Both the position numbers and the translations under genes were made by a program. Shown piece after piece: positions 12,089 through 42,788 of a stretch of DNA of 64,000 nucleotides (positions are counted from its first letter, which is position 1; every line of letters starts with the position of its first letter). Source of the DNA: Comamonadaceae bacterium (GTDB lineage: Bacteria; Pseudomonadota; Gammaproteobacteria; Burkholderiales; Burkholderiaceae_C). The notes under the pieces were generated by a model. The model saw only the letters and a program-made list of their open reading frames with translations. It was not told where the DNA came from and ran no database searches. The stretch lies in assembly GCA_031430035.1 (NCBI GenBank), contig JANPAS010000083.1, positions 36,769 to 100,768 on the forward strand. The letters are read 5' to 3'.

Positions 12089-12469
12089 ATGATCAGCCGC
12101 CGGGCCAAACTTCATGAAGAGACCAACTTCCGCCTGATGAGGATATTGGAAACCAACTCAGACCTGTCTCAGCGTGAGATGGGTAAAGCACTGGGCATCA
12201 GCTTTGGCGGCATCAACTATTGCTTGAACGCCCTGGTAGCCAAGGGCTTGGTGAAGATTGAAAACTTCAGCCAAAACAAAAACAAGTTCGGCTATGTTTA
12301 CCTGCTGACGCCAGGCGGGATTGCGGAAAAGGCTTCGCTGACCAGTAAGTTCTTGAAGCGCAAGATGGATGAATACGAGGCGCTCAAGGTTGAGATTGAG
12401 ACTTTGAAGTCGGAAATAGAAAAAGAAGCTGAAATAAAAATTTCACACCTCAAGCGAGGAGCGCAGTGA
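12089..12469 (+). CDS. MarR-family transcriptional regulator of the EPS-associated type
   Basis: A small (126 aa) winged-helix protein: SQREMGKALGISFGGINYCLNALVAKGLVKIENFSQNKNKFGYVYLLTPGGIAEKASLT, followed by a C-terminal coiled coil. This architecture matches the MarR regulators found at the head of EPS loci. Confidence 0.8.
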   Translation: MISRRAKLHEETNFRLMRILETNSDLSQREMGKALGISFGGINYCLNALVAKGLVKIENFSQNKNKFGYVYLLTPGGIAEKASLTSKFLKRKMDEYEALKVEIETLKSEIEKEAEIKISHLKRGAQ

Positions 12470-18819: not shown

Positions 18820-19554
18820 ATGGATATTGGAGATTGTGAATTGAAGTTACTCATTTTGGCGGGCGGATTTGGCTCCCGCCTGCAGTCTGTGCTCCCCGAC
18901 ACGCCCAAGGCATTGGCACCGATCGGCGATGTACCCTTCCTTGCGCTCCAGCTTGAAAACTGGGTTGCCCAAGGAGTCCGCTCATTCATTTTTCTTTTGC
19001 ACCATCAGGCTGACCAGATCACCAACTTCCTGAGCAGTGCCAAGAGCGGTCTGCTTAAAGAGTGCGAGGTTCAAAGCCTGATTGAACCGACGCCGATGGA
19101 CACTGGGGGCGCGGTGGCTCATGCAGTTCGCGAACTCAATCTCAACGAGGATTTTCTCGTCACCAATGCCGATACCTGGTTAGGTTCAGGCATCCAGGAA
19201 CTGATCGCTTCGGCGGCGCCGGCGATAGCGGTCATCAGACTTGATGACTCCGGCCGCTATGGCAAGGTCCAATTTGACGACCGCCAACGCGTCACGGCGT
19301 TCACGGAAAAAAATGCCCTTGGCGAGCCAGGTTGGATCAATGCCGGGCTTTGCCGCTTGGGCGTCGACCTGTTCCGGACTTGGGATGGCGCCCGGTTTTC
19401 GCTTGAAAGACAAACCTTTCCGGAGTTGGCGCAACGAGGCGAATTAGGAGCCGTCATCATCAAACCAGATTTCATCGATATTGGAATTCCCGAGGACTAT
19501 CAACGATTTTGTCGTTGGATCGAAGGAGGTCGCAAAGGCAAATTATGCAAGTAG
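18820..19554 (+). CDS. Sugar-1-phosphate nucleotidyltransferase, HddC-like (heptose-1-phosphate guanylyltransferase type)
   Basis: LLILAGGFGSRLQSVLPDTPKALAPI (G-G-x-G-x-R-L loop). The short 244-aa single-domain architecture and the neighbouring HddA-like and GmhA-like genes fit this type. The nucleotide specificity cannot be read from the sequence. Confidence 0.6.
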   Translation: MDIGDCELKLLILAGGFGSRLQSVLPDTPKALAPIGDVPFLALQLENWVAQGVRSFIFLLHHQADQITNFLSSAKSGLLKECEVQSLIEPTPMDTGGAVAHAVRELNLNEDFLVTNADTWLGSGIQELIASAAPAIAVIRLDDSGRYGKVQFDDRQRVTAFTEKNALGEPGWINAGLCRLGVDLFRTWDGARFSLERQTFPELAQRGELGAVIIKPDFIDIGIPEDYQRFCRWIEGGRKGKLCK

Positions 19555-20933
19555 AAAAATTTCTCATCGCAGAAACCGCAACGCTGCGGGAAGCTCTGGC
19601 GCGCATCGAGCTCAACCACCATGGCATCATCATGGCAATGGATACGATCGGGCGGGTCACCGGCCTGGCCACAGATGGCGACATCCGGCGCGAGCTGCTG
19701 AATGGTCGGACGCTGGATGACATGATCTCGTCGTGCATCAACGCCGCGTTCATCTTTGAAGATCCTGCGACCCCTCGTGAAGCTTTGCTCAAGAAGCTCG
19801 ACCAACGCATTCGTGTCATTCCCTTGCTTGACGCCGATCGCCGACTGGTCGGCTTGGTCAGTCGCGACCACTTGCCGGTCCGGGATGAAGAAGCCGTGTT
19901 CGCGCGGGCCCGCGCGCCGGTACGGATCAGCTTTGGCGGCGGCGGCTCCGACCTGACCCACTATTTCTCCGGCCAGGATGGCGCGGTGATCAACACCACC
20001 ATCTCGCTCTACAGCCATGCGACGCTACGCGTGCGGGATGACGAGAAAGTCTCGATCCATTCACTCGATCTTAACGAATCACTGCATGCAGACAGCCTCC
20101 AACAAGCGCTGGCGAAGGAAGATCGTTTTGGCCTGATTAAGGCTCTGCTGCGTATCGTGCAACCGGATTTTGGCTTCGACCTCTACCTGCACTCAGACTT
20201 TCCGATGAATTCTGGCCTCGGCGGTTCCGCCGTCGTATCGGCGACCGTCCTTGGGTGCTTTAACCAGTTCAGGCTTGATCAGTGGGATCCGCATGAGTTG
20301 GCCGAGCTGGCGTTCCAAGCCGAACGACTGTACCTGGGTGTGGCAGGTGGCTGGCAAGATCAATATGCCACTGTTTTTGGCGGATTCAATTTCATCGAAT
20401 TCAGAATGGAGCAGAATATTGTTCACCCGCTTCGGATCCATCCCGACATCCTGCTTGAACTCGAGGAAAGTCTGATCCTCTGCGACACCGGAACCACTCA
20501 CGATTCGGGTAATATCCACGAAGATCAGCGGCGTCAGATGGAAGACCAAGCGATTCGAACGCATGTGAACACGAACGTCGAACTGTCCTACCGGATTCGC
20601 AATCAATTGTTGCGCGGTAAGCTGCACGATTTCGGTCACTCGCTTCACGATGCCTGGCAATTCAAACGGCAGTTCAGCAGCAAAATTTCCAATAATCGCC
20701 TCGACCAGATTTACGAAGAGGCTCGCGCCCATGGCGCACTGGGCGGGAAGTTGCTAGGGGCGGGGGGCGGGGGCTTCTTCCTCTTTTATGTACCACCATT
20801 CAAGAAGCACGAATTGATTCAACATTTGGAAGCATCAAAATTGCAGGTTAGGCCCTTCCGCTTCGAGCAGGATGGCTTGCGCGCATGGACCGTGCGCGAG
20901 CGCAAAAATCATATGGAAATGGAAAGTAAATGA
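19545..20933 (+). CDS. CBS-pair domain fused to a GHMP sugar kinase (HddA-like)
   Basis: N-terminal ~115 aa: ATLREALARIELNHHGIIMAMD..GRVTGLATDGDIRR ... IRVIPLLDADRRLVGLVSRDHL (two CBS repeats). Kinase part: RISFGGGGSDLTHYF, PMNSGLGGSAVVSATV (GHMP motif 2), GWQDQYATVFGGFNFIEF and GGKLLGAGGGGFFLFY. The start is set at the ATG at 19545, which overlaps the upstream stop. Confidence 0.7.
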   Translation: MQVEKFLIAETATLREALARIELNHHGIIMAMDTIGRVTGLATDGDIRRELLNGRTLDDMISSCINAAFIFEDPATPREALLKKLDQRIRVIPLLDADRRLVGLVSRDHLPVRDEEAVFARARAPVRISFGGGGSDLTHYFSGQDGAVINTTISLYSHATLRVRDDEKVSIHSLDLNESLHADSLQQALAKEDRFGLIKALLRIVQPDFGFDLYLHSDFPMNSGLGGSAVVSATVLGCFNQFRLDQWDPHELAELAFQAERLYLGVAGGWQDQYATVFGGFNFIEFRMEQNIVHPLRIHPDILLELEESLILCDTGTTHDSGNIHEDQRRQMEDQAIRTHVNTNVELSYRIRNQLLRGKLHDFGHSLHDAWQFKRQFSSKISNNRLDQIYEEARAHGALGGKLLGAGGGGFFLFYVPPFKKHELIQHLEASKLQVRPFRFEQDGLRAWTVRERKNHMEMESK

Positions 20934-22822
20934 AGATGAGAATCGGGCAATACGAGATCGGGTCTGGCCACACCTATGTCATCGCTGAAATTGGCAACAA
21001 TCACAACGGCAGTTTTGATCGCGCGATCGAGCTGATTGATCTGGCTCTGGACGCTGGCGCCGACTCGGTCAAGTTCCAGATGCGGCATCTGGACCAGATA
21101 TACCGTCAGCGCACCTTGCGCAAGGACGGCGAGGACTTGGGCACCGAATACGTTCTCGATCTGCTGCGAAGGTTCGAACTCACCGTCGACGAGCATCACA
21201 AGCTAGCCGAGTACTGTCGCGCCAAAGATGCGACCTATCTGTGCACGCCTTGGGATGCCGTCAGTGTGGACGTGCTCGAATCGTTCGGAGTCCCTGCTTA
21301 CAAGGTGGCATCGGCTGACCTTACCAACTTGCCCTTGCTCGACCACCTCGCTCAAACAGGGAAGCCCCTGATCCTGTCCACCGGAATGAGTACCCCTCAG
21401 GAAGTGAAAGCCACGGTCGCCTTCCTTGGCAAACGCAACGCACAATTTGCACTGTTACATTGCAACAGTACCTACCCAGCGCCGCTGCACGACATTAATC
21501 TGAAGTGGATTGAGCAATTACGCAAGATCCACCCACTGATTGGATATTCGGGTCACGAGCGCGGCATCAATGTTTCGCTAGCAGCCGTGGCATTGGGTGC
21601 GACCATCATCGAGCGCCATTTCACGCTGGACCGCGGGATGGAAGGTCCGGATCACGCAGCGAGCCTGACCCATTCGGAACTCAAGCGACTGATCGAAGGC
21701 ATCAGGGAAATCGAAGAATCGCTAGGGGATGGACTAACGCGAACCCTGTCCCAGGGCGAAATGATCAACCGCGAAAACTTGGGCAAAAGCCTGGTCGCCG
21801 CGACGGCGCTGGCCAAAGGTACCAGACTCACAGCTGCGCACATCAAGGTTCGCAGCCCCGGTCAAGGACTTTCGCCGCAACGATACGAAGAACTGCTGGG
21901 CAAGACACTGCAGCACGACATGGAGGAAGAAACTTTCTTCTTCCCTTCGGACCTGACCGAAACCCGTGTAGAGCCCCGTCCATATCGGTTTGATCGGCCT
22001 TGGGGAGTGCCAGTGCGCTACCATGACTTCGGAGAATATTCCGCTAGGATCAAACCGGACGTATGGGAATTCCACCTTTCTTACTCAGATATGGATCTTG
22101 ATCTAGCCAACTTCCTGAAGGGCACTTACGAAGCAGGTTTCGTGGTGCATGCACCGGAGCTGTTCTCTGGCAGCCGCCTGATGGACCTAGCAACGCCAGA
22201 TGAAGCCTACCGCGCTGAATCGCTGCGAGAAACCCAGCGCGTGATCGATATCACCAGGAACTTGAAGCGCTTCTTCCCGAACACGAAAAGACCCCAGATC
22301 GTCGCCAACATTGGCGGCTTCACGATGGATGAATTGCTTCCGACGGAGGTGATTCCAAGCTATTACGAACGCTTTGCTCGCAGCTTGGCCGAGTTGGACC
22401 TGGACGGAGTCGAGCTGATTCCGCAAACGATGGCACCGTTTCCCTGGCATTTCGGTGGCCAGCGGTATCAGAACCTGTTCGTCAAGATCGAGGAAATCGT
22501 TCATTGGTGCCAGAAGCTCAATCTGCGCATGTGCTACGACGTATCCCACAGCTCCCTGACCTGTAATCATCTTGGCTACGATTTCTATGAGTTCAGCAGG
22601 CAGATCGCCCCGTTGACAGCACACCTGCACCTCGGCGATGCTAGGGGACTCAATGGCGAAGGCTTACAGGTTGGTGAGGGTGATATCGACTTCGACCGCC
22701 TCGGCGCGATCCTGCGCCAGGGTTGCCCTGACGCTTCATTCATCCCCGAGATTTGGCAGGGCCATAAAAACAGCGGCGAGGGATTCTGGATCGCCATGGA
22801 ACGACTGGAGGGCAAGCTGTAA
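20930..22822 (+). CDS. Fusion protein: NeuB-type (PEP-condensing) ulosonic-acid synthase with SAF domain, plus a xylose-isomerase-like TIM-barrel domain
   Basis: Residues ~1-350: YVIAEIGNNHNGSFDRAIELIDLALDAGADSVKFQ, AYKVASADLTNLPLL, PLILSTGMST, LLHCNSTYPAP, GYSGHERG, IIERHFTLDR..GPDHAASL, then a SAF-like segment (KSLVAATALAKGTRLTAAHIKVRSPGQGLSP). Residues ~370-630: FHLSY..., VVHAPE, IVANIGGF, ELIPQTM, CYDVSH, HLHLGDA, IPEIW, typical of the sugar-phosphate isomerase/epimerase (AP-endonuclease-2) fold. Confidence 0.75.
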   Translation: MKMRIGQYEIGSGHTYVIAEIGNNHNGSFDRAIELIDLALDAGADSVKFQMRHLDQIYRQRTLRKDGEDLGTEYVLDLLRRFELTVDEHHKLAEYCRAKDATYLCTPWDAVSVDVLESFGVPAYKVASADLTNLPLLDHLAQTGKPLILSTGMSTPQEVKATVAFLGKRNAQFALLHCNSTYPAPLHDINLKWIEQLRKIHPLIGYSGHERGINVSLAAVALGATIIERHFTLDRGMEGPDHAASLTHSELKRLIEGIREIEESLGDGLTRTLSQGEMINRENLGKSLVAATALAKGTRLTAAHIKVRSPGQGLSPQRYEELLGKTLQHDMEEETFFFPSDLTETRVEPRPYRFDRPWGVPVRYHDFGEYSARIKPDVWEFHLSYSDMDLDLANFLKGTYEAGFVVHAPELFSGSRLMDLATPDEAYRAESLRETQRVIDITRNLKRFFPNTKRPQIVANIGGFTMDELLPTEVIPSYYERFARSLAELDLDGVELIPQTMAPFPWHFGGQRYQNLFVKIEEIVHWCQKLNLRMCYDVSHSSLTCNHLGYDFYEFSRQIAPLTAHLHLGDARGLNGEGLQVGEGDIDFDRLGAILRQGCPDASFIPEIWQGHKNSGEGFWIAMERLEGKL

Positions 22823-23418
22823 TGTCCCTTCTTTTGACTATCCACGCCGAAGTGGCGGCGTCCATCGCCGTCAAACAGGCGCTGCTGCAGGACGATGCGC
22901 TATTGACGCAGATCGAGGCCCTAGCAAGGCAGTGCGTGGCCGCACTTCGCGCTGGCGGAAAAATTATTTTCGCTGGCAACGGCGGAAGTTTCGCCGATGC
23001 GCAGCACTTGTCCGCCGAATTCGTGTCCCGCTTCAAATTTGACCGCGCGCCGCTAGCGTCACTGACGCTGGGCACCAACAATTCCGCCATCAGCGCAATC
23101 GGCAACGACTATGGCTACGATCAGGTATTTTCACGCGAACTGGAAGCGGTCGCCAAAGCGGGCGATGTGTTCATCGGCATTAGCACCAGCGGCAACAGCC
23201 CGAATATACTTGCTGCCGTCAACAAAGCCGCGGCACTGGGCATCGCCACGACCTGCTTGACTGGCCGTACTGGCGGCAAGCTGCTCGCAATGTGCAATTG
23301 CCTGTGCATGCCGTCCGATGACACTGCGCGCATTCAGGAAGCCCATATCACTGTCGGCCACATTATTTGCGGCTTGGTCGAGCAGATTTATTTTCCAGAA
23401 GGGAAAAGTGCCCTATGA
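22822..23418 (+). CDS. SIS-domain sugar-phosphate isomerase, GmhA-like (sedoheptulose-7-phosphate isomerase type)
   Basis: GGKIIFAGNGGSFADAQHLSAEF, LGTNNSAISAIGNDYGYDQVF, DVFIGISTSGNSPNIL and ARIQEAHITVGHIIC. The 198-aa length is typical of GmhA/DiaA. Confidence 0.75.
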   Translation: MSLLLTIHAEVAASIAVKQALLQDDALLTQIEALARQCVAALRAGGKIIFAGNGGSFADAQHLSAEFVSRFKFDRAPLASLTLGTNNSAISAIGNDYGYDQVFSRELEAVAKAGDVFIGISTSGNSPNILAAVNKAAALGIATTCLTGRTGGKLLAMCNCLCMPSDDTARIQEAHITVGHIICGLVEQIYFPEGKSAL

Positions 23419-24140
23419 GTAGTATTGTCGCCCTGATCCCCGCCCGTGCCGGCTCTAAGGGGGTTCCCCATAAAAATATCAAGCTCCTGGGCGGACGCCC
23501 CCTAATTGAATGGTCGATCAAGGCCTGCCTGAAATCCCAATTGATCGACCGTGTCATTGTTTCCACGGACTCACCTGAATACGCCGAATTGGCGATAGAA
23601 CTGGGGGCAGAGGCGCCTTTCTTGCGCCCCTCGGAAATTTCAGCCGACCGTTCGACTGATTACGATTTCATTGCGCACGCACTGGACTGGCTCGCTGCCA
23701 ACGGTGGCGAACCGCAGCATGTGGTGCACATCCGTCCCACGACACCATACCGCGATCCTGCTCTGATAGACCAAGCAATCAAGGTTTTTCTCAGCGAAGC
23801 TAAGGCCACGGCGCTGCGCTCGGTGCATGAAATGTCCGAGTCCGCTTACAAGACCTTCGAAATCGCACCGGCAGGCCAGCTCATGCGCCTAGGCAGCGAC
23901 AGCACTGCTCTCGACGCTGCCAATAACGCCCGCCAGCAATTTCCCGCCACCTACCAGGCCAACGGCTACGTGGACGTGCTTTCTTCCCGTTTCATCAGAA
24001 CCAATGGCCTGATTCATGGCGACTGGGTTATGCCTTTTATCACCCCCACCGTGATTGAGGTGGACACGATCGACGATTTTGTTCATCTTGAATTCTTGCT
24101 TGATCGCAATCGCGCATTTTTCGACAAATTATTTACCTGA
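23415..24140 (+). CDS. Acylneuraminate-type cytidylyltransferase (CMP-ulosonic acid synthetase family)
   Basis: IVALIPARAGSKGVPHKNIKLLGGRPLIEWSI and VHIRPTTPYR. The start is the ATG at 23415, overlapping the upstream TGA (ATGA). Confidence 0.75.
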   Translation: MSSIVALIPARAGSKGVPHKNIKLLGGRPLIEWSIKACLKSQLIDRVIVSTDSPEYAELAIELGAEAPFLRPSEISADRSTDYDFIAHALDWLAANGGEPQHVVHIRPTTPYRDPALIDQAIKVFLSEAKATALRSVHEMSESAYKTFEIAPAGQLMRLGSDSTALDAANNARQQFPATYQANGYVDVLSSRFIRTNGLIHGDWVMPFITPTVIEVDTIDDFVHLEFLLDRNRAFFDKLFT

Positions 24141-24148
24141 GGTTATTT

Positions 24149-25537
24149 ATGGCTGGACATGAATTTTCCCGGAGCCCACAGAAGGTTCCGTTTGTAAGCA
24201 CCGAACATCGCACTATCAAGACAGCGATTCCTGCTCCCGGCACCGAGCAGATACTCGCCACTCTGGATTGCTACGAATCGCGTTCCATGCATGGCCAGTT
24301 CCCGCTGATCTGGGACCGTGCGGTGGATTCCAGCGTGTTCGATATCGCCGGCAATCGCTGGATCGATTTCACGTCGACGATTTTTGTCGCCAATGTGGGC
24401 CACTCCAACCCCAGGGTAACGGCCGCCATGCAGGCGATGATGGATGCCCCGATCTACAGTTGCTATGCCTACCCAAACATTAAACGCGCCGAATACCTGA
24501 AGAAGCTGATCGAATTCGCCGGCCCTCCGTTCGAAAAGGCTTTCCTGCTGTCAGCCGGAACCGAAGCCACCGAGGCCGCGCTGAAACTGATACGCATGCA
24601 TGGCCAGAAAATCGGCAAGCGCCGCGGCGGCATCGTCTGCATTGAGGGCAACTGGCATGGCCGCACCATGGGTGCGCAAATGATGAGCAGCAACCTGACC
24701 CAGCGCGAATGGATCGGCTTCCAAGATCAGGATATCCATCACATTCCGTTCCCGTATGCTTGGGCCTTGAACGGGACTAGTCCGGAAGCCTTCCTCGAAG
24801 CGGGCCTGGCGCGTCTAGCCGCATCGGGAATCGACATCGAAAAGGATGTGTCGGGCTTCATGCTGGAAACCTTCCAGGGCTGGGGCGCTGTGTTCTATCC
24901 GAAGGAGTTTGTCCAGGCCATCGAAAAAGTGTGCCGTAAACACAATATCTTGCTCGCCTTTGATGAAATGCAGGCGGGATTCGGCCGCACGGGCCGCCGC
25001 TTCGGGTTTGAGCATTACGAAGTCACACCGGACCTGATCGCTTGCGGCAAAGGCATGGGCGGCGGTGTTTCCCTCTCCGGCGTGCTTGGCCGTGCAGAAG
25101 TCATGGATTTGCCGGATATCGGCAACATGAGCAGTACCCACTCCGCCAATCCGCTGGTCTGCGCTGCGGGCCTGGCGGTAATCGAGGAACTGGAACAGCG
25201 CGACCTCGTCAGCGAGGCGGCTCGCAAGGGAGAGATGCTGTTCGATGCCTTGACCGCGCTGCAGCAGCGTTTCCCTGACCGCATTTCCGCATTGCTTGGC
25301 AAGGGCTTGATTGCTGCCGTACTGTTCCGTTCCCCTGTCACTGGCGCCGCCGATGGAGCCTTTACCAGCCGGGTCGCCGAGCGCTGCATGCAAAAGGGCT
25401 TGCTGGTGGTGCATACTGGGCGAGAGTCGATCAAGATCGGCCCGCCACTGACCATCGCCGATCAAGCCTTGATGGAAGGTGTCGACGTACTGGGCGAGGC
25501 GATCACTGAAATCAGTGCGGAAGTGAACGCAGAATGA
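24149..25537 (+). CDS. Class III (omega-type) PLP-dependent aminotransferase
   Basis: LLSAGTEATEAALKL, GNWHGRTMGA, LAFDEMQAGFGRTGRRFGFEHYEVTPDLIACGKGMGGG (Schiff-base Lys) and STHSANPL. Confidence 0.8.
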   Translation: MAGHEFSRSPQKVPFVSTEHRTIKTAIPAPGTEQILATLDCYESRSMHGQFPLIWDRAVDSSVFDIAGNRWIDFTSTIFVANVGHSNPRVTAAMQAMMDAPIYSCYAYPNIKRAEYLKKLIEFAGPPFEKAFLLSAGTEATEAALKLIRMHGQKIGKRRGGIVCIEGNWHGRTMGAQMMSSNLTQREWIGFQDQDIHHIPFPYAWALNGTSPEAFLEAGLARLAASGIDIEKDVSGFMLETFQGWGAVFYPKEFVQAIEKVCRKHNILLAFDEMQAGFGRTGRRFGFEHYEVTPDLIACGKGMGGGVSLSGVLGRAEVMDLPDIGNMSSTHSANPLVCAAGLAVIEELEQRDLVSEAARKGEMLFDALTALQQRFPDRISALLGKGLIAAVLFRSPVTGAADGAFTSRVAERCMQKGLLVVHTGRESIKIGPPLTIADQALMEGVDVLGEAITEISAEVNAE

Positions 25538-25971
25538 TTAGCGCGATCCGGCATACCGGCCTGGTGGTAGCCGACCTTGAACGGGCGCTGCACTTTTGGT
25601 GCGATGCGCTCGGCTTCAAGGTGGTCAGGCAGATGGAAGAGTCGGGACCCCATATCGACGCCATGATGGGCCTGCACGATGTCCGTGTGACCACCGCCAA
25701 ACTGGCGGCGCCCGACGGCAACCTGATCGAGCTATTGCAGTTTCACTCCCATCCCGACCGGCCGCAGTGGGACGGCGCACCGTATTCGACCGGGTTCACC
25801 CATATCGCCCTGACGGTAGAAGACCTTGACGCACTGGTCGGCAAACTTGCGCCCCTAGGAGTCACTTTCCCGGCACCGCCGCAATATTCACCTGACGGTG
25901 GCGTCAAGGTGATTTATGCTAGAGGCCCCGAGGGGGTCCTCCTCGAACTCGTCGAAATATTGACCAAATGA
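25534..25971 (+). CDS. VOC (glyoxalase/bleomycin-resistance/dioxygenase) family protein
   Basis: IRHTGLVVADLERALHFWCDALGFKV ... FTHIALTVEDLDALVGKL ... GPEGVLLELVE: paired beta-alpha-beta-beta-beta modules. Confidence 0.7.
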   Translation: MISAIRHTGLVVADLERALHFWCDALGFKVVRQMEESGPHIDAMMGLHDVRVTTAKLAAPDGNLIELLQFHSHPDRPQWDGAPYSTGFTHIALTVEDLDALVGKLAPLGVTFPAPPQYSPDGGVKVIYARGPEGVLLELVEILTK

Positions 25972-26948
25972 ACCAGACAACTCACCAGAAACCCCAACAG
26001 AGTACGACAGCCTGTCCTCTCTGCGCATCGGAAAAGAGCGAAATCCTTGTCCAACAGCTGCGACGTGGCTATGGCATGGCGCGCTATTGCCCTGCCTGTG
26101 ATCATGGCTACTTGGTCCAGGAACAGGCCGTGGACGCCAAGGAGTATTACGGCGAACTGTATCGTCAAGAGTATTCCCATAATGCCGAGGCGGCAGCGAC
26201 CCATGCCCGGGAAATATTCCGGGTTTACAAGAACTATCAGCAGGATCGCTTGCATCATATTCTACCCCTCTTGACTGCCAGTTCGCGGCTGTTAGAAGTT
26301 GGTGCCTCCGCAGGACAATTCCTGAGTCATATCAAGCACAAGGTTGGGGAGGTAAATGCCATCGAGCTCGACAAAGCCTGCTGCGCCTTCCTGGGCAGCG
26401 ATCTCGGCATCGATGCGGATGTGGAATTCCTGGAAAACTCGCGCTTTGCCGACCAAACCTACGACGTGGTCTGTGCTTTTCAGGTGATAGAGCATGTCGA
26501 GCAGCCTGTGGCGTTCCTCAAAACCCTCCAGCGGGTCACGAAGAAGGGCGGGACAATCTTCATCGAGGCTCCCAATCTGCGCGATCCCCTGCTATCGGTG
26601 TGGGACGTGCCGACATATCGTAAATTTTTTTATCACAGCGCCCATCTCCATTACTTTACGGAGGCCTCCTTGACCAAGGTGGCACGAGATGCCGGTTTTC
26701 GCGCCGATCAGATAGAAATCAGTTTTACTCAGGACTACAACGTCCTGAATCATCTTCACTGGATCATGAACGATGGCCCCCAATCCGATTGCCATGTGGG
26801 CCTGAGTGAAATAAACCTGCGCGGCCCCAATCAAGAAATCGCGACTTGGTTAACCGAAGAAATGAGAGACGTGAATTGCCGCTACATTGCCAAGCTGGTG
26901 GCGGCGAAATGCACCTCCAACATGCTGATGAAATTGCACTATGAATAA
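25968..26948 (+). CDS. Class I SAM-dependent methyltransferase with N-terminal Cys4 zinc-ribbon
   Basis: CPLC...CPAC, then motif I LLEVGASAGQF, and YDVVCAFQVIEHVEQP / GGTIFIEAPN. Confidence 0.7.
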   Translation: MNQTTHQKPQQSTTACPLCASEKSEILVQQLRRGYGMARYCPACDHGYLVQEQAVDAKEYYGELYRQEYSHNAEAAATHAREIFRVYKNYQQDRLHHILPLLTASSRLLEVGASAGQFLSHIKHKVGEVNAIELDKACCAFLGSDLGIDADVEFLENSRFADQTYDVVCAFQVIEHVEQPVAFLKTLQRVTKKGGTIFIEAPNLRDPLLSVWDVPTYRKFFYHSAHLHYFTEASLTKVARDAGFRADQIEISFTQDYNVLNHLHWIMNDGPQSDCHVGLSEINLRGPNQEIATWLTEEMRDVNCRYIAKLVAAKCTSNMLMKLHYE

Positions 26949-27774
26949 CAAAATCGGTTTCATGCAAGGACGCCTCTCCCCCTTGGTGGACGGGAAAATA
27001 CAGGCCTTCCCCTGGGATACTTGGCAGCAGGAGTTTCCCGCGGCTCAGAGTTTGGGGCTGGGCCTGATGGAATGGACCTTGGATCAGGATCGGCTCTATC
27101 AGAATCCCCTGCTGACGCCCCAAGGCCAGCAGGAGATTCGCCGCCTGTGTCAGGCACATAGGCTGACCATTCCTTCGCTGACTGGGGACTGCTTCATGCA
27201 GGCCCCGTTCTGGAAAGCTGAACATCCTGTAAAGGCAGGCCTCGAGGCGAATTTCATCGCCATAGCCCGCGCCTGCGCTGCGGTCGGTATTGAAATGATC
27301 GTCGTGCCACTGGTTGACAACGGCAAGCTTGAAAATGATCAACAGGAGGATGCGCTGGTCGCCTTCATGCTGGATCAGGCAGACCTGTTTCAGAAGCTCC
27401 GCCTGCGCATCATTTTCGAAAGCGATTTCGTCCCGGATAATCTCGCACGCTTCATCGACCGCCTGCCAGCCGAAACCTTTGGTGTTAACTACGACATCGG
27501 TAACAGTGCGGCATTGGGATTCAATCCCGAGGCAGAATTCGCGGCATATGCTCCCCGTATCATGAATGTGCATATCAAAGACAGGATCCGTGGCGGAACC
27601 ACAGTCGCTCTGGGCAGTGGCAATGCCGACTTCCCGGCGGTCTTTAGTCTGCTACGAGACGCTGCCTACGGCGGTTACTTCATCATGCAAACTGCCCGTG
27701 CTGAAAATGGCGACCATGCCGGTGCCCTGAGTCGGTACATCGGTCAAATCGAGACTTGGACGAAAGGGCTCTGA
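26941..27774 (+). CDS. Sugar-phosphate isomerase/epimerase (xylose-isomerase-like TIM barrel)
   Basis: IGFMQGRLSP, LMEWTLD, IVVPLVDN, IIFESDF, VNYDIGNS, VHIKDR and YFIMQTAR: spaced barrel-strand motifs of this family. Confidence 0.65.
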   Translation: MNNKIGFMQGRLSPLVDGKIQAFPWDTWQQEFPAAQSLGLGLMEWTLDQDRLYQNPLLTPQGQQEIRRLCQAHRLTIPSLTGDCFMQAPFWKAEHPVKAGLEANFIAIARACAAVGIEMIVVPLVDNGKLENDQQEDALVAFMLDQADLFQKLRLRIIFESDFVPDNLARFIDRLPAETFGVNYDIGNSAALGFNPEAEFAAYAPRIMNVHIKDRIRGGTTVALGSGNADFPAVFSLLRDAAYGGYFIMQTARAENGDHAGALSRYIGQIETWTKGL

Positions 27775-27775
27775 T

Positions 27776-28537
27776 ATGCAACTTCAGTTGCAAGGGAAAT
27801 CTGTTCTGGTCACTGGCTCATCCAAGGGGATCGGCCGAGCCATCGCCGAGGCGTTTCTGGCTGAGGGTGCCGAAGTCGCATTCAATGGACGCAATGCCGA
27901 GGACCTTAAGCGTGTCATCGCAGACCAGATCGAGGGCAAAGCTATAGCCGTCGATGGCGATGTAAGCAAACCGCACGGTGCTCGTGAAGTAGTCAACGGT
28001 GTGCTCTCGGCATTTGGGAAGCTTGACGTACTGGTTTGCAATGTCGGCAGCGGTCGGTCAGTGCCTCCGGGCCTAGAGACTCATCAGGAGTGGTTGAAGA
28101 TTTTTGAGCAAAATCTGTGGAGCGCAACTAATATGGTCGAAGCCGCAAAGCATGCACTCATCAAAACCAAAGGTACGATAGTTTGTATTTCTTCTATTTG
28201 CGGTCAAGAGGTCATACTGGGGGCGCCCGTCACCTACTCATCTGCAAAAGCGGCCCTCAACGCGTATGTTCGCGGCATTGCTCGGCCGCTGGGGCAAGAC
28301 GGCGTGAGAATCAATGCCATCGCCCCCGGCAATGTCCTGTTCGAGAACTCTGTCTGGCAAAGAAAGATCAACGAGGATGCCGCTGCTGTCAAGCAGATGC
28401 TGGCGCGCGATGTGGCCCTGTCAAAGCTTGGTACGCCCCAGGATGTCGCCAATCTTGCGCTATGGCTGGCGTCTCCTGCGGCATCGTTTTGCACCGGCAG
28501 CATATTTGTCACGGACGGCGGGCAAGTCCGAAGTTAA
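27776..28537 (+). CDS. Classical SDR oxidoreductase (FabG-like)
   Basis: KSVLVTGSSKGIGRAIA (TGxxxGxG), NVGS, YSSAKAALNAY (YxxxK) and PGNV. Confidence 0.8.
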   Translation: MQLQLQGKSVLVTGSSKGIGRAIAEAFLAEGAEVAFNGRNAEDLKRVIADQIEGKAIAVDGDVSKPHGAREVVNGVLSAFGKLDVLVCNVGSGRSVPPGLETHQEWLKIFEQNLWSATNMVEAAKHALIKTKGTIVCISSICGQEVILGAPVTYSSAKAALNAYVRGIARPLGQDGVRINAIAPGNVLFENSVWQRKINEDAAAVKQMLARDVALSKLGTPQDVANLALWLASPAASFCTGSIFVTDGGQVRS

Positions 28538-28556
28538 GAAACAGATAAGGTGAAAG

Positions 28557-29390
28557 ATGGCTTTTGAGAAATTCGATCTGACCGGCAAGACCGCCCTAAT
28601 TACCGGCGCGGCCGGCTTGCTGGGCATGGAGCACGCGGCGGCGCTGTTAGAGAGCGGCGCGACGGTGGTGCTGACTGACATGAGCGCCACAGCGCTTGAC
28701 GCTGCAGCGCAACGCTTGAGTGAACGCCATGACCGCGCGCGGATCCTGACCACGGTGATGGATGTGACCGATCCAGCGGCCATAGGTGCTGTAGCGAAAA
28801 TGCTGTCCGGACGAGGTTTGCGCGTGGACATTCTGGTCAACAACGCAGCCATCGACCCCAAGGTTAAGGGCGATCATGGAGTTGTGGAGACGTCGCGCCT
28901 TGAACACTTCCCCTTGGATCAATGGAATCTGCAGGTGGCCGTCGGTCTGACCGGTGCATTCCTGTGCAGCCAAGTCTTTGGCAGCGCGATGTCCCAAGAC
29001 GGAAAAGGGGGGGTCATCCTGAACATCGCTTCTGATCTCTCGGTCTTCGCCCCCGACCAGCGGCTCTACCGCAAGGAGAGCTTGCCCGATGAGCTGCAAC
29101 CCGTGAAGCCGGTGACCTATTCGGTGATTAAGGCCGGACTGATCGGATTGACCCGTTATCTGGCCACCTACTGGGCTGACAAGGGCGTGCGATGCAACGC
29201 TCTCTCACCCGGTGGTGTCTACAACGGCCAGGGAGACGAATTCGTCCAGCGGTTGACCTCGCTGATTCCGCTTGGGCGGATGGCCGACAAGGAGGAGTAT
29301 CGGGCTGCGGTGCAGTTTCTCTGCTCGGATGCGTCTGCGTACATGAATGGCCAGAACATAGTCATGGATGGCGGTCGCAGTGTCCTGTAA
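28557..29390 (+). CDS. SDR oxidoreductase
   Basis: KTALITGAAGLLGMEHA, NNAA, YSVIKAGLIGLTRY (YxxxK) and PGGV. Confidence 0.8.
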   Translation: MAFEKFDLTGKTALITGAAGLLGMEHAAALLESGATVVLTDMSATALDAAAQRLSERHDRARILTTVMDVTDPAAIGAVAKMLSGRGLRVDILVNNAAIDPKVKGDHGVVETSRLEHFPLDQWNLQVAVGLTGAFLCSQVFGSAMSQDGKGGVILNIASDLSVFAPDQRLYRKESLPDELQPVKPVTYSVIKAGLIGLTRYLATYWADKGVRCNALSPGGVYNGQGDEFVQRLTSLIPLGRMADKEEYRAAVQFLCSDASAYMNGQNIVMDGGRSVL

Positions 29391-41666: not shown

Positions 41667-42788
41667 ATGAGCAATCGAATTTACTACACGAAACCATCCA
41701 TAACAGAGCTGGAAGTGCGTTACGCCACTGACGCTGCACAAAACGGCTGGGGTGATCGTTGTTACGACTACATCAACCGCTTTGAAGATGCCTTCAAGCA
41801 ACACCTTGGGGTTAAATACGCCATTGCCACTTCCAGTTGCACCGGCGCACTTCACATGGGTTTGGCATCATTGGGTGTCGGCTCGGGTGACGAAGTGATT
41901 CTGGCAGACACTAACTGGATCGCCAGTGCTGCCCCCATCACCTATCTCGGGGCAAGCCCAGTATTCGTCGATATCCTGCCCGACACATGGTGCCTTGATC
42001 CGCAGCGCGTCCGAGAAGCGATCACGCCGAAAACGAAGGCCATTATTGCTGTGCATCTCTATGGGAATCTGTGCGAGATGGATGAATTGATGTCCATCTC
42101 TAAACATTATGGCATTCCGGTAATTGAGGACGCCGCCGAGGCAATAGGCTCGGTGTATCACGGCAAGCATGCGGGATCGATAGGCAGGTTTGGCGCATTC
42201 TCATTCCACGGTACAAAGACCATCACCACTGGTGAAGGCGGAATGTTTGTCACCAACGATGCAGACTTGTACGAGTACGTGCTGACGTTAAGTAATCATG
42301 GCCGTGCCAGGGGGCAAACGAAGCAGTTCTGGCCTGATATGGTGGGCTTTAAGTACAAAATTTCCAATGTGCAGGCGGCGATCGGTTGTGCCCAGATGGA
42401 GCGTGTCGGGGATCTTGTCGCGCGCAAGCGCGAGATTTTTTCCAACTACCGAAGGCTCCTAGAGCGGTTTCCGGACGTCGTGATCAATCCTGAGTTACCG
42501 AATACCGTAAACGGCGCTTGGATGCCTAGTGCTGTCTTTACGTCGGCATCTGGCATTACTCGCGAACGGTTGCAAGCTGCGTTTGCCGCAGAAAGCATCG
42601 ACGCGCGCGTGTTTTTCAACCCCTTGTCTTCTTTGCCGATGTTCGTGGGGCAAAAGCAAAATCGATTTGCTTGGGATATTCCCAGTCGCGCCATTAATCT
42701 GCCGAGTTTCCATGACATGGAGTTTATCGACCAGGAGCGTGTCATCGATGTTATTGCCAAATTGCTGACAGAAGAGCGAACTCGATGA
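41667..42788 (+). CDS. DegT/DnrJ/EryC1-family sugar aminotransferase, perosamine-synthase-like
   Basis: YYTKPSITELE, SSCTGALHMGL, AVHLYGN, FSFHGTKTITTGEGGMFVTND (Lys), FKYKISNVQAAIGCAQMERV and INLPSF. This closely follows my recollection of the GDP-perosamine synthase (Per/RfbE) sequence pattern. Confidence 0.7.
   Translation: MSNRIYYTKPSITELEVRYATDAAQNGWGDRCYDYINRFEDAFKQHLGVKYAIATSSCTGALHMGLASLGVGSGDEVILADTNWIASAAPITYLGASPVFVDILPDTWCLDPQRVREAITPKTKAIIAVHLYGNLCEMDELMSISKHYGIPVIEDAAEAIGSVYHGKHAGSIGRFGAFSFHGTKTITTGEGGMFVTNDADLYEYVLTLSNHGRARGQTKQFWPDMVGFKYKISNVQAAIGCAQMERVGDLVARKREIFSNYRRLLERFPDVVINPELPNTVNGAWMPSAVFTSASGITRERLQAAFAAESIDARVFFNPLSSLPMFVGQKQNRFAWDIPSRAINLPSFHDMEFIDQERVIDVIAKLLTEERTR

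Follow-up and report, generated by a model that had tools for sequence, protein, structure and literature searches.

Sialic-acid-like sugars shape the encounters of bacteria with phages, grazers and immune systems. To our knowledge, all known amino-nonulosonic pathways, for example those for pseudaminic and legionaminic acid (Pse and Leg), carry out amination before condensation by NeuB, and we know of amino groups in this sugar class only as installed by DegT-type enzymes, before the sugar acid is built. Routes of the Kdn/Neu5Ac-9-phosphate type reportedly join a sugar-6-phosphate to phosphoenolpyruvate (PEP) and use a phosphatase and a CMP-synthetase, BT1714/BT1713 of Bacteroides thetaiotaomicron being an example. 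In the Kdo8N pathway of Shewanella the metal-dependent alcohol oxidase KdnB and the aminotransferase KdnA act on C8 of Kdo. Here we analyse six genes at positions 24149-29390 of a 64,000-nucleotide stretch of Comamonadaceae DNA (contig JANPAS010000083.1, positions 36,769 to 100,768; referred to below as the window). They encode a class III aminotransferase (AT), a protein of the vicinal oxygen chelate (VOC) family, a zinc-ribbon methyltransferase (MT), a xylose-isomerase-like TIM barrel (TIM) and two short-chain dehydrogenases/reductases (SDR1 and SDR2). We show that this stretch comprises an exchangeable cartridge of CMP-transferase, AT, VOC and, in some loci, MT, followed by a conserved keto-sugar trio of TIM, SDR1 and SDR2, and that this cartridge architecture is the new element of the operon. 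Judged from its sequences, the operon is most likely a widespread and unstudied one for a sialic-acid-like surface sugar, and we think it probable, if not assured, that its two evolutionary and functional modules produce a CMP-activated, aminated and methylated ulosonic acid.

A canonical amino-nonulosonic pathway was considered and rejected. Between 12.0 and 38.7 kb of the window we found no NDP-HexNAc 4,6-dehydratase (PseB/LegB-type), DegT aminotransferase, N-acetyltransferase or NeuC/PseG/LegG-type hydrolase domain, so that the locus does not encode the pathway of pseudaminic, legionaminic or neuraminic acid (Neu5Ac); its NeuB homologue also scores under the NCBIfam cut-offs for NeuB and PseI, and its CMP-transferase under that for PseF. 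The Kdn/Neu5Ac-9-phosphate routes are similar in having a NeuB-family synthase, a phosphatase function (here a fused barrel or a KdsC-like HAD enzyme) and a CTP_transf_3 enzyme, and in that no NDP-sugar 4,6-dehydratase, NeuC or acetyltransferase steps are encoded at the window locus. They differ in that no AT, VOC, methyltransferase, TIM or SDR pair is known from them, whereas these are conserved core components here. Kdo8N formation, for which KdnA and KdnB were compared by description only, is alike in logic, in that a built ulosonic acid is oxidised, transaminated and then CMP-activated. However, the oxidant here would be an SDR (a Pfam scan of the cassette revealed no iron-type alcohol dehydrogenase domain), and the AT has the class III fold and a VOC partner. 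By analogy, the amination after condensation that we propose would reverse the canonical amino-nonulosonic order and resemble the logic of Kdo8N. Partial parallels can also be found in the literature. In flagellin islands of Aeromonas, pseF has class III aminotransferase genes as neighbours (PMC7874193), a likeness again drawn by description only, and Leptospira interrogans has a fused NeuB, an ‘aminotransferase’ and a CMP-synthetase (YP_002104, YP_002103 and YP_002102; PMC3438082) that are probably adjacent since their accession numbers are consecutive. L. kemamanensis carries the class III type of AT.

To define the company that the AT keeps we assembled 80 AT-centred loci from species-representative genomes (49-95% AT identity), clustered all of their open reading frames (ORFs) and scored gene presence by tblastn; the counts that follow refer to the 55 loci with enough flanking DNA, which come from more than 15 phyla. 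A CMP-transferase is encoded directly upstream of the AT in all 55 and a NeuB homologue of some form in 54, which bears out the initial annotation in assigning the block to a NeuB/CMP-transferase pathway. The VOC gene is likewise present in 54, SDR2 in 47, TIM in 45 and SDR1 in 44 loci. The fusion of NeuB to a TIM barrel that is seen in the window, the heptose-type kinase and the NTP-transferase are found in 22, 21 and 20 loci, respectively, and a window-type MT (at least 45% identity) in seven. On these counts, five of the six ‘tailoring’ genes are core components and the upstream ‘activation cassette’ is partly accessory, while the window-type MT is the only truly variable gene of the six. 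Moreover, the six-gene set is far beyond what chance would produce: over 100 loci, drawn from many phyla, encode these proteins and keep them in this order.

The organisms concerned are diverse. AT-bearing taxa include Burkholderiales (Lacisediminimonas, 95% identity), Cyanobium, Chlorobium, Pelagibacteraceae, SAR86, SAR116 and Leptospira, together with Bacteroidota, Bacillota, Planctomycetota, Nitrospinota and others among the 80 loci. The AT shares 77-95% identity across phyla, and relatives at 77-99% identity are found in many source records, including those of Cyanobium, Rhodobacterales and Rhodoferax. Rhodobacterales, Cyanobium and metagenome contigs repeat the full order of eleven genes seen in the window, in one case with a polysialyltransferase-family gene after it. 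Searches of phage and plasmid collections gave no AT relatives at E-values of 1e-40 and 1e-80.

This linkage bears directly on the idea, raised as an alternative in the initial annotation, that the genes build a non-sugar amino-acyl substituent, and on the further possibility that they serve ordinary amino-acid or gamma-aminobutyric acid (GABA) metabolism and merely lie beside glycan genes. The AT is indeed nearest to GABA and acetylornithine transaminases, and the SDRs and the VOC protein have generic folds. However, the conserved set includes no ligase, ATP-grasp enzyme, acyl-CoA synthetase, carrier protein or N-acyltransferase, which leaves the amino-acyl proposal unsupported. The AT lies far under every equivalog cut-off, its association with a CMP-transferase and NeuB holds across the phyla sampled, and sugar aminotransferases of other folds take the same slot, as described below. 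We regard a role outside sugar metabolism as very improbable.

The reverse test, in which the NeuB fusion served as query against metagenome contigs, yielded 39 loci with at least 7.5 kb of downstream sequence and 46 with at least 5 kb. SDR2 accompanies the fused NeuB most constantly (38 of 39 loci), followed by TIM (34), the NTP-transferase in company with kinase and fused NeuB (31) and SDR1 (27); the VOC gene is found in 12 and the class III AT in 10. At least four types of cartridge fill the slot between the SIS isomerase gene and TIM in the larger set of 46. Thirteen loci have the class III AT with VOC, and ten have a class IV AT (PF01063, BCAT-like) with a divergent cytidylyltransferase. 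Seven have a DegT-type AT (PseC/LegC-like, at high identity) in a cartridge that also holds a different barrel and a Gfo/Idh/MocA oxidoreductase, and six have an extra SDR, no AT and a third type of cytidylyltransferase; the remaining ten have some other content or none. The cytidylyltransferases of the class III, class IV and extra-SDR (SDRc) cartridges share only 28-35% identity with one another. When mapped on a maximum-likelihood tree of the fusions, the cartridge types are scattered and require 24 changes against a mean of 27.3 for shuffled labels and a minimum of 4. Individual pairs of loci illustrate the exchange: a class IV locus (L094) and a class III locus (L108) are 85% identical in NeuB, 81% in SIS, 74% in TIM, 70% in SDR1 and 75% in SDR2, and a class IV locus (L144) and an extra-SDR locus (L149) have fusions that are 99% and kinases that are 93% identical, as though all that lies downstream of SIS had been swapped recently. 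The TIM, SDR1 and SDR2 proteins of the last two, both from metagenome contigs, are only 57-65% identical. In a class-wide sample of 300 genomes we found only three other fused NeuB proteins, at 30-48% identity, and the AT in none of those genomes.

The view of the six genes as a single tailoring block therefore has to be given up: CMP-transferase, AT and VOC are exchanged, and TIM, SDR1 and SDR2 form a separate and more constant group that also occurs without this AT. Since four cartridge types pair with the same NeuB, SIS and TIM-SDR-SDR genes, it is most simply supposed that the frame supplies a common carbonyl intermediate that is then either transaminated or reduced. Amino transfer would thus be integral to most versions of the pathway, with the enzyme for it being exchangeable. 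Furthermore, the CMP-transferase co-varies with the cartridge and NeuB does not, which suggests that the sugar is modified, and hence aminated, after condensation and before activation.

It is formally conceivable that the six enzymes instead act before condensation, on a sugar phosphate or an NDP-heptose, and that NeuB condenses the resulting aldose, which would be aminated, methylated or epimerised, with PEP. Such a scheme would follow the order of the known amino-nonulosonic pathways, and it would suit the structural match closest to TIM, UlaE, which uses a phosphorylated ketose. In many loci TIM adjoins NeuB and SIS rather than the SDRs, and the fusion-type loci have genes for a kinase, an NTP-transferase and a GmhB-like phosphatase. 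However, NeuB fusions that are 85-99% identical pair with different cartridges and would have to accept varied substrates, and the co-variation just described involves the activating enzyme and not the condensing one. In addition, loci with a NeuB that has no SAF domain possess the AT module with neither kinase nor NTP-transferase. In light of this, we judge action before condensation to be quite unlikely.

The NeuB partner of the AT takes two forms, a fusion that is always accompanied by the kinase, or a SAF-less protein of 282 amino acids. A KdsC-like HAD phosphatase of 168 amino acids was counted in ten loci, only with the SAF-less NeuB and never with the fusion. This complementary distribution supports a role as pathway phosphatase for the fused barrel (window 20930-22822). 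Genes for the KdsC-like enzyme were recorded at L023, L025, L026, L047, L049, L052, L056, L060, L061, L063, L066 and L080.

Table 1. The eleven genes of the frame and cartridge in the window, with their Pfam assignments.
Gene product	Position	Strand	Pfam domains and remarks
NTP-transferase (HddC-like)	18820..19554	+	PF00483; upstream frame
CBS-GHMP sugar kinase (HddA-like)	19509..20933	+	PF00288, PF00571, PF08544; frame
NeuB-SAF synthase fused to second TIM barrel	20930..22822	+	PF03102, PF08666, PF01261; constant condensing enzyme of the frame
GmhA-like SIS sugar-phosphate isomerase	22822..23418	+	PF13580
CMP-transferase (PseF/NeuA-like)	23367..24140	+	PF02348; directly upstream of AT
Class III (fold-type I) aminotransferase (AT)	24149..25537	+	PF00202, 290 bits
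VOC, glyoxalase I/methylmalonyl-CoA epimerase-like metalloenzyme	25534..25971	+	PF00903
Cys4 zinc-ribbon and class I S-adenosylmethionine methyltransferase (MT)	25968..26948	+	Methyltransf_23, residues 92-247
Xylose-isomerase-like TIM barrel, UlaE-like (TIM)	26941..27774	+	PF01261
SDR1, classical SDR, NADP(H)-type	27776..28537	+	PF13561, PF00106
SDR2, classical SDR with insertion, NAD(H)-type	28557..29390	+	PF13561, PF00106 in two stretches

From the genes, domains, conserved catalytic residues, synteny and modular exchange observed here we infer which substrates are used, what is produced, which carbon is aminated and in which order the steps occur, as follows. The NeuB synthase would condense a sugar phosphate with PEP, and the product would be dephosphorylated. 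The NAD-type SDR2 would then oxidise a hydroxyl group of the sugar acid to a carbonyl, beside which TIM, joined by VOC where the cartridge is of class III, would rearrange or epimerise the molecule. The AT would next introduce the amino group, with an amino acid (probably glutamate) as donor, the NADP-type SDR1 would reduce the carbonyl that remains, and the zinc-ribbon MT would add a methyl group to carbon, nitrogen or oxygen. Finally, the CMP-transferase belonging to the cartridge would activate the finished amino sugar acid. According to this scheme the first module, the amination cartridge, would comprise the dedicated CMP-transferase, the class III AT, VOC and usually a methyltransferase, and the second, the keto-sugar trio, TIM and the two SDRs. 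The gene names given in the initial annotation, each upheld by the ORF coordinates and Pfam domains (Table 1), and its idea that the sugar is oxidised and then transaminated are retained in the scheme, the latter being consistent with the NAD-type SDR, the keto-sugar type of TIM and the occurrence of other aminotransferases or a reductase in the same slot. The simpler account in which an SDR is just the oxidase of the AT was rejected as the whole story, as the trio is found without this AT and the AT without the trio.

The keto-sugar chemistry is suggested in part by TIM. Its predicted model (pLDDT 95.9) has UlaE as the best Foldseek match (TM 0.84), followed by an isomerase, IolE, psicose/ketose 3-epimerases, 3-keto-glucoside 1,2-lyases, the 3-keto-glucoside 4-epimerase YcjR and a keto-glucal hydratase; all of these neighbours of the modelled fold act beside a sugar ketone. 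Profile alignment pairs E160, D185 and H211 with ligands of UlaE, and a G-x-MQGRL motif at the N-terminus is invariant in the family. Assignment as a UlaE/SgbU L-xylulose-5-phosphate 3-epimerase (Glu155/Asp185/His211/Glu251, with the two glutamates serving as catalytic acid and base) was nevertheless rejected: the NCBIfam score is 38 bits against a cut-off of 317, and the second catalytic glutamate, Glu251, is replaced by an invariant glutamine, Gln250. This replacement speaks for a one-base reaction, of isomerase or lyase type, rather than for a classical two-base epimerase.

Both SDRs are classical members of their family, with matches to PF13561 and PF00106 and the family motifs (TGxxxGxG, an NNAG-like motif and the catalytic Ser...YxxxK) conserved in 46 (SDR1) and 51 (SDR2) relatives. 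SDR1 has TGxxxGIG, YxxxK and, after strand beta-2, Arg39 (at least 80% of relatives), and SDR2 has NNAA, YxxxK, a conserved insertion and Asp41 at the end of beta-2 (conserved in at least 95%). By the established cofactor rules for SDRs the arginine indicates NADP and the aspartate NAD, so that SDR2 is the likely oxidant and probably forms the ketone as an alcohol dehydrogenase, and reduction likely falls to SDR1, probably a ketoreductase. An oxidise/rearrange/reduce trio of this kind has a counterpart in E. coli YcjS/YcjR/YcjQ, which matches SDR2-TIM-SDR1 and includes YcjR, one of the TIM neighbours. However, the Ycj dehydrogenases are Gfo/Idh/MocA enzymes and not SDRs, the Ycj substrate is a neutral glucoside, and the barrel of the window has no second catalytic glutamate. 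A second likeness is to ptmA/ptmB of the legionaminic acid locus of Campylobacter, in that an SDR with PRK09186 as its best NCBIfam model is encoded together with a CMP-nonulosonate synthetase. NF006619/PRK09186, which we take to be the ‘flagellin modification protein A’ model, is the best NCBIfam match of SDR2, but at 159 bits SDR2 falls under its cut-off of 255. In a Plesiomonas locus PtmA is encoded beside LegF, and PtmF is an oxidoreductase of 326 amino acids (PMC4481668).

The AT is matched by PF00202 over its full length (profile positions 6-403 of 403) and belongs to class III, the Schiff-base lysine of its CGKG motif and the sequence FDEMQAGFGRTG (class III motif DExQxGFGRTG) being kept in 80 relatives. 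The closest solved structures are the GABA aminotransferases PuuE and GabT (approximately 1e-59), but neither the scores nor the active site place the protein among the GABA, ornithine or acetylornithine enzymes (GabT, PuuE, OAT, ArgD). NF004426, the best NCBIfam model, gives 294 bits where its cut-off is 552, all models for GabT give 202-255 bits where the cut-offs are 506-747, and every NCBIfam equivalog is far below cut-off; the AT belongs to a separate class III subfamily and is not a GABA or ornithine enzyme. When the register was fixed by the entry for the E211S mutant of GABA aminotransferase (1szk; E. coli GabT numbering), the two residues that gate dual substrate recognition were found to be replaced, Glu211 by tryptophan and Arg398 by lysine, each in at least 95% of 80 relatives. 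These replacements and the scores agree with the earlier remark that such an aminotransferase is unusual in a sugar context. The equivalent of Arg141 (the arginine of WHGRT) is kept, also in at least 95%; it was dropped as a pointer to the aminated position, the same arginine being needed for binding of glutamate and 2-oxoglutarate.

VOC is the obligate partner of the class III AT. The two genes adjoin in 62 loci, with an overlap of 4 nucleotides in 27 of these, and their translation is coupled in most loci. Among the class IV cartridges listed, and in the seven of DegT type at high identity, VOC is absent. The protein is matched by PF00903 over profile positions 2-121 of 121 and belongs to the glyoxalase I/methylmalonyl-CoA epimerase type with its paired beta-alpha-beta-beta-beta modules and His/Glu/His/Glu site, the metal tetrad H7/E66/H90/E138 being conserved in 67 relatives. 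VOC retains this site, and its role is probably catalytic, that of an isomerase or epimerase, and not one of binding. It was rejected as lactoylglutathione lyase (GloA) or methylmalonyl-CoA epimerase proper, with 46.6 bits against a cut-off of 120 for TIGR00068 and 28.7 bits against 115 for TIGR03081.

These features of AT and VOC have to be weighed when asking which carbon is aminated. The initial annotation proposed that an SDR oxidises a terminal carbon of the ulosonic acid or heptose, that the AT aminates it by a logic like that of Kdo8N, and that the MT then methylates nitrogen or oxygen; in the form weighed here the SDR would produce a terminal or penultimate carbonyl and the AT a primary amine. 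In line with this, the transaminases nearest to the AT, those of GABA, ornithine and putrescine, act on terminal amines and aldehydes, and the weak sequence matches of the MT include phosphoethanolamine N-methyltransferases, which methylate a primary amine. The proposal can be refined if VOC, with its glyoxalase-type tetrad, moves the carbonyl from a penultimate ketone to a terminal aldehyde, a shift that would account for VOC being needed by the class III AT alone. However, DegT-type (PseC/LegC-like) and BCAT-like class IV enzymes, which normally aminate ketones, fill the same slot, TIM and the best fold neighbours of the MT work at or beside secondary ketones, and the Glu211/Arg398 switch of GABA aminotransferase is not found in the AT. 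On balance we consider amination at the terminal carbon possible but unlikely, and hold the version with a carbonyl shift by VOC to be unlikely in the same degree.

The MT introduces a further modification. Its N-terminus has a four-cysteine ribbon, C16-x2-C19...C41-x2-C44 (CPLC...CPAC), and as 80% or more of 21 relatives retain its cysteines the description ‘zinc ribbon’ is justified at the level of sequence; in the AlphaFold model (pLDDT 88.6) the region forms a small beta unit. The best fold matches are the sugar C-3'-methyltransferases KijD1, MtmC and TcaB9 (E-values of 3e-13 to about 1e-13, TMq 0.50-0.53), aligned over about 340 columns or roughly the full query length, and are followed by generic methyltransferases and phosphoethanolamine N-methyltransferases. 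KijD1, MtmC and TcaB9 are TylC3-type NDP-4-keto-sugar enzymes that carry an N-terminal Cys4 zinc domain, use dTDP-sugars and methylate beside the sugar ketone. A Cys4 ribbon is present in the MT; PF08421 and PF08484, the N-terminal zinc domain and the C-terminal domain of that family, were not detected in it, and the TM-score is only about 0.5. C-methylation, as suggested by this modelled fold, is thus a serious alternative to N- or O-methylation. In many loci the position of the MT is occupied by a ribbon-less methyltransferase of 229 amino acids that is 26% identical over the catalytic domain, and one or other of the two forms directly follows VOC in 35 of 58 loci. Up to three more small methyltransferase families (219, 229 and 276 amino acids) recur in the AT-centred loci, and heavy methylation seems to be a theme of this sugar family.

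Several observations weigh against the scheme that we favour. Four of the AT-centred loci (L030, L033, L044 and L045) have neither TIM nor the SDRs and possess B12-radical-SAM genes instead, so that coupling of SDR to AT is not obligatory. TIM, SDR1 and SDR2 follow cartridge type somewhat more closely, which can be explained by physical linkage, although co-adaptation could explain it too. It should also be noted that modular exchange demonstrates compatibility and not the order of reactions, and that the scheme has no role for the heptose-type kinase and NTP-transferase. Finally, no characterised orthologue or measured product of any member was found in NCBIfam or the literature, and a literature search for a published characterisation of a cassette with NeuB, class III AT and VOC likewise found none. 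Genes for B12-binding radical SAM proteins (approximately 486 amino acids) were seen in L030, L033, L044, L045, L064, L065, L067 and L071.

The cassette is found in aquatic lineages of high abundance (Pelagibacteraceae, SAR86, SAR116, Cyanobium, freshwater Burkholderiales and Chlorobium) and also in Leptospira. There, a common intermediate seems to receive its amino group from an exchangeable cartridge; if this is true, recombination would offer a cheap means of diversifying surface antigens, and the cassette provides candidate enzymes for making new amino sugar acids. In Magnetospirillum, CMP-activated ten-carbon ulosonic acids with two N-acetyl groups have been described, with no genes assigned (bioRxiv 10.64898/2026.04.20.719630). 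The cassette may offer gene candidates for such higher-carbon CMP-ulosonic acids seen by mass spectrometry. One may go further and picture a combinatorial platform, in which different cartridges on one frame yield new amino-ulosonic acids that are positional or stereoisomers of one another, possibly of ten carbons and derived from heptose-7-phosphate. In such a platform VOC would transpose the carbonyl in the manner of a glyoxalase and pass a terminal aldehyde to the AT, class IV and DegT enzymes would aminate the ketone directly, and the MT would C-methylate the keto intermediate to give a branched or chain-extended acid. We offer this as a speculation and think it distinctly unlikely to be correct in full.

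The arrangement of the genes in the window is compact. All six ORFs have the coordinates given for them earlier and the same orientation. Eight nucleotides separate the CMP-transferase from the AT, with AGG about 10 nucleotides 5' of the ATG of the AT. Overlaps of 4 nucleotides join AT to VOC and VOC to MT, and one of 8 nucleotides joins MT to TIM; the gaps between TIM and SDR1 and between SDR1 and SDR2 are 1 and 19 nucleotides. A pattern scan of the region for promoters and terminators gave no more sites than shuffled sequence. As listed, the CMP-transferase ORF has a TTG start and overlaps the SIS gene by 52 nucleotides, but an ATG at 23415 (M17, followed by MSSIVALIPARAGSKG) would leave a 4-nucleotide ATGA overlap with the SIS stop codon. 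This ATG is probably the true start, because the relatives are 241 amino acids long and such an overlap with the SIS stop is the usual one. Among the upstream genes, the kinase scores 249.6 bits against the 600-bit cut-off of the HddA NCBIfam model, and the SIS isomerase 178 bits against 276 for phosphoheptose isomerase.

The cassette of the window is itself a mosaic. SIS, CMP-transferase, AT and VOC are 94-96% identical (tblastn) to those of the Lacisediminimonas locus, to which TIM and SDR1 are only 68-72% identical and where the MT finds matches of only 26-28%; MT, TIM and SDR1 are 79-85% identical to those of a Curvibacter locus. Recombination breakpoints thus seem, from these identities, to lie near NeuB/SIS and VOC/MT. 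Farther out, the window contains GDP-mannose-type genes, an ABC exporter, a deacetylase, glycosyltransferases, a pyruvyl transferase and a MarR-type regulator. The DegT-type gene reported at 41667 was seen here as an ORF only.

A conserved protein of approximately 595 amino acids with no Pfam match is often encoded 3' of SDR2 (L014-L016, L019, L032, L061, L063-L065, L067, L069, L071, L083 and L084) and could be the transferase for the new sugar. In Rhodobacterales LSUCC0387 a second, unrelated class III aminotransferase (25% identity) is encoded about 2 kb downstream of the cassette (L001:18038-21157), and a GMC/FAD oxidoreductase gene lies two genes past it, beside GtrA and GT2 genes. Aminoglycoside pathways rely on such a pairing of an oxidase with a class III aminotransferase for 6'-amination. 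A small MarR/HTH_24 regulator gene heads the plus-strand row of glycan genes in the window (12089-12469), and another is found in the same Rhodobacterales locus (L001:1851-2228), upstream of an ABC exporter; this regulator may be dedicated to these loci.

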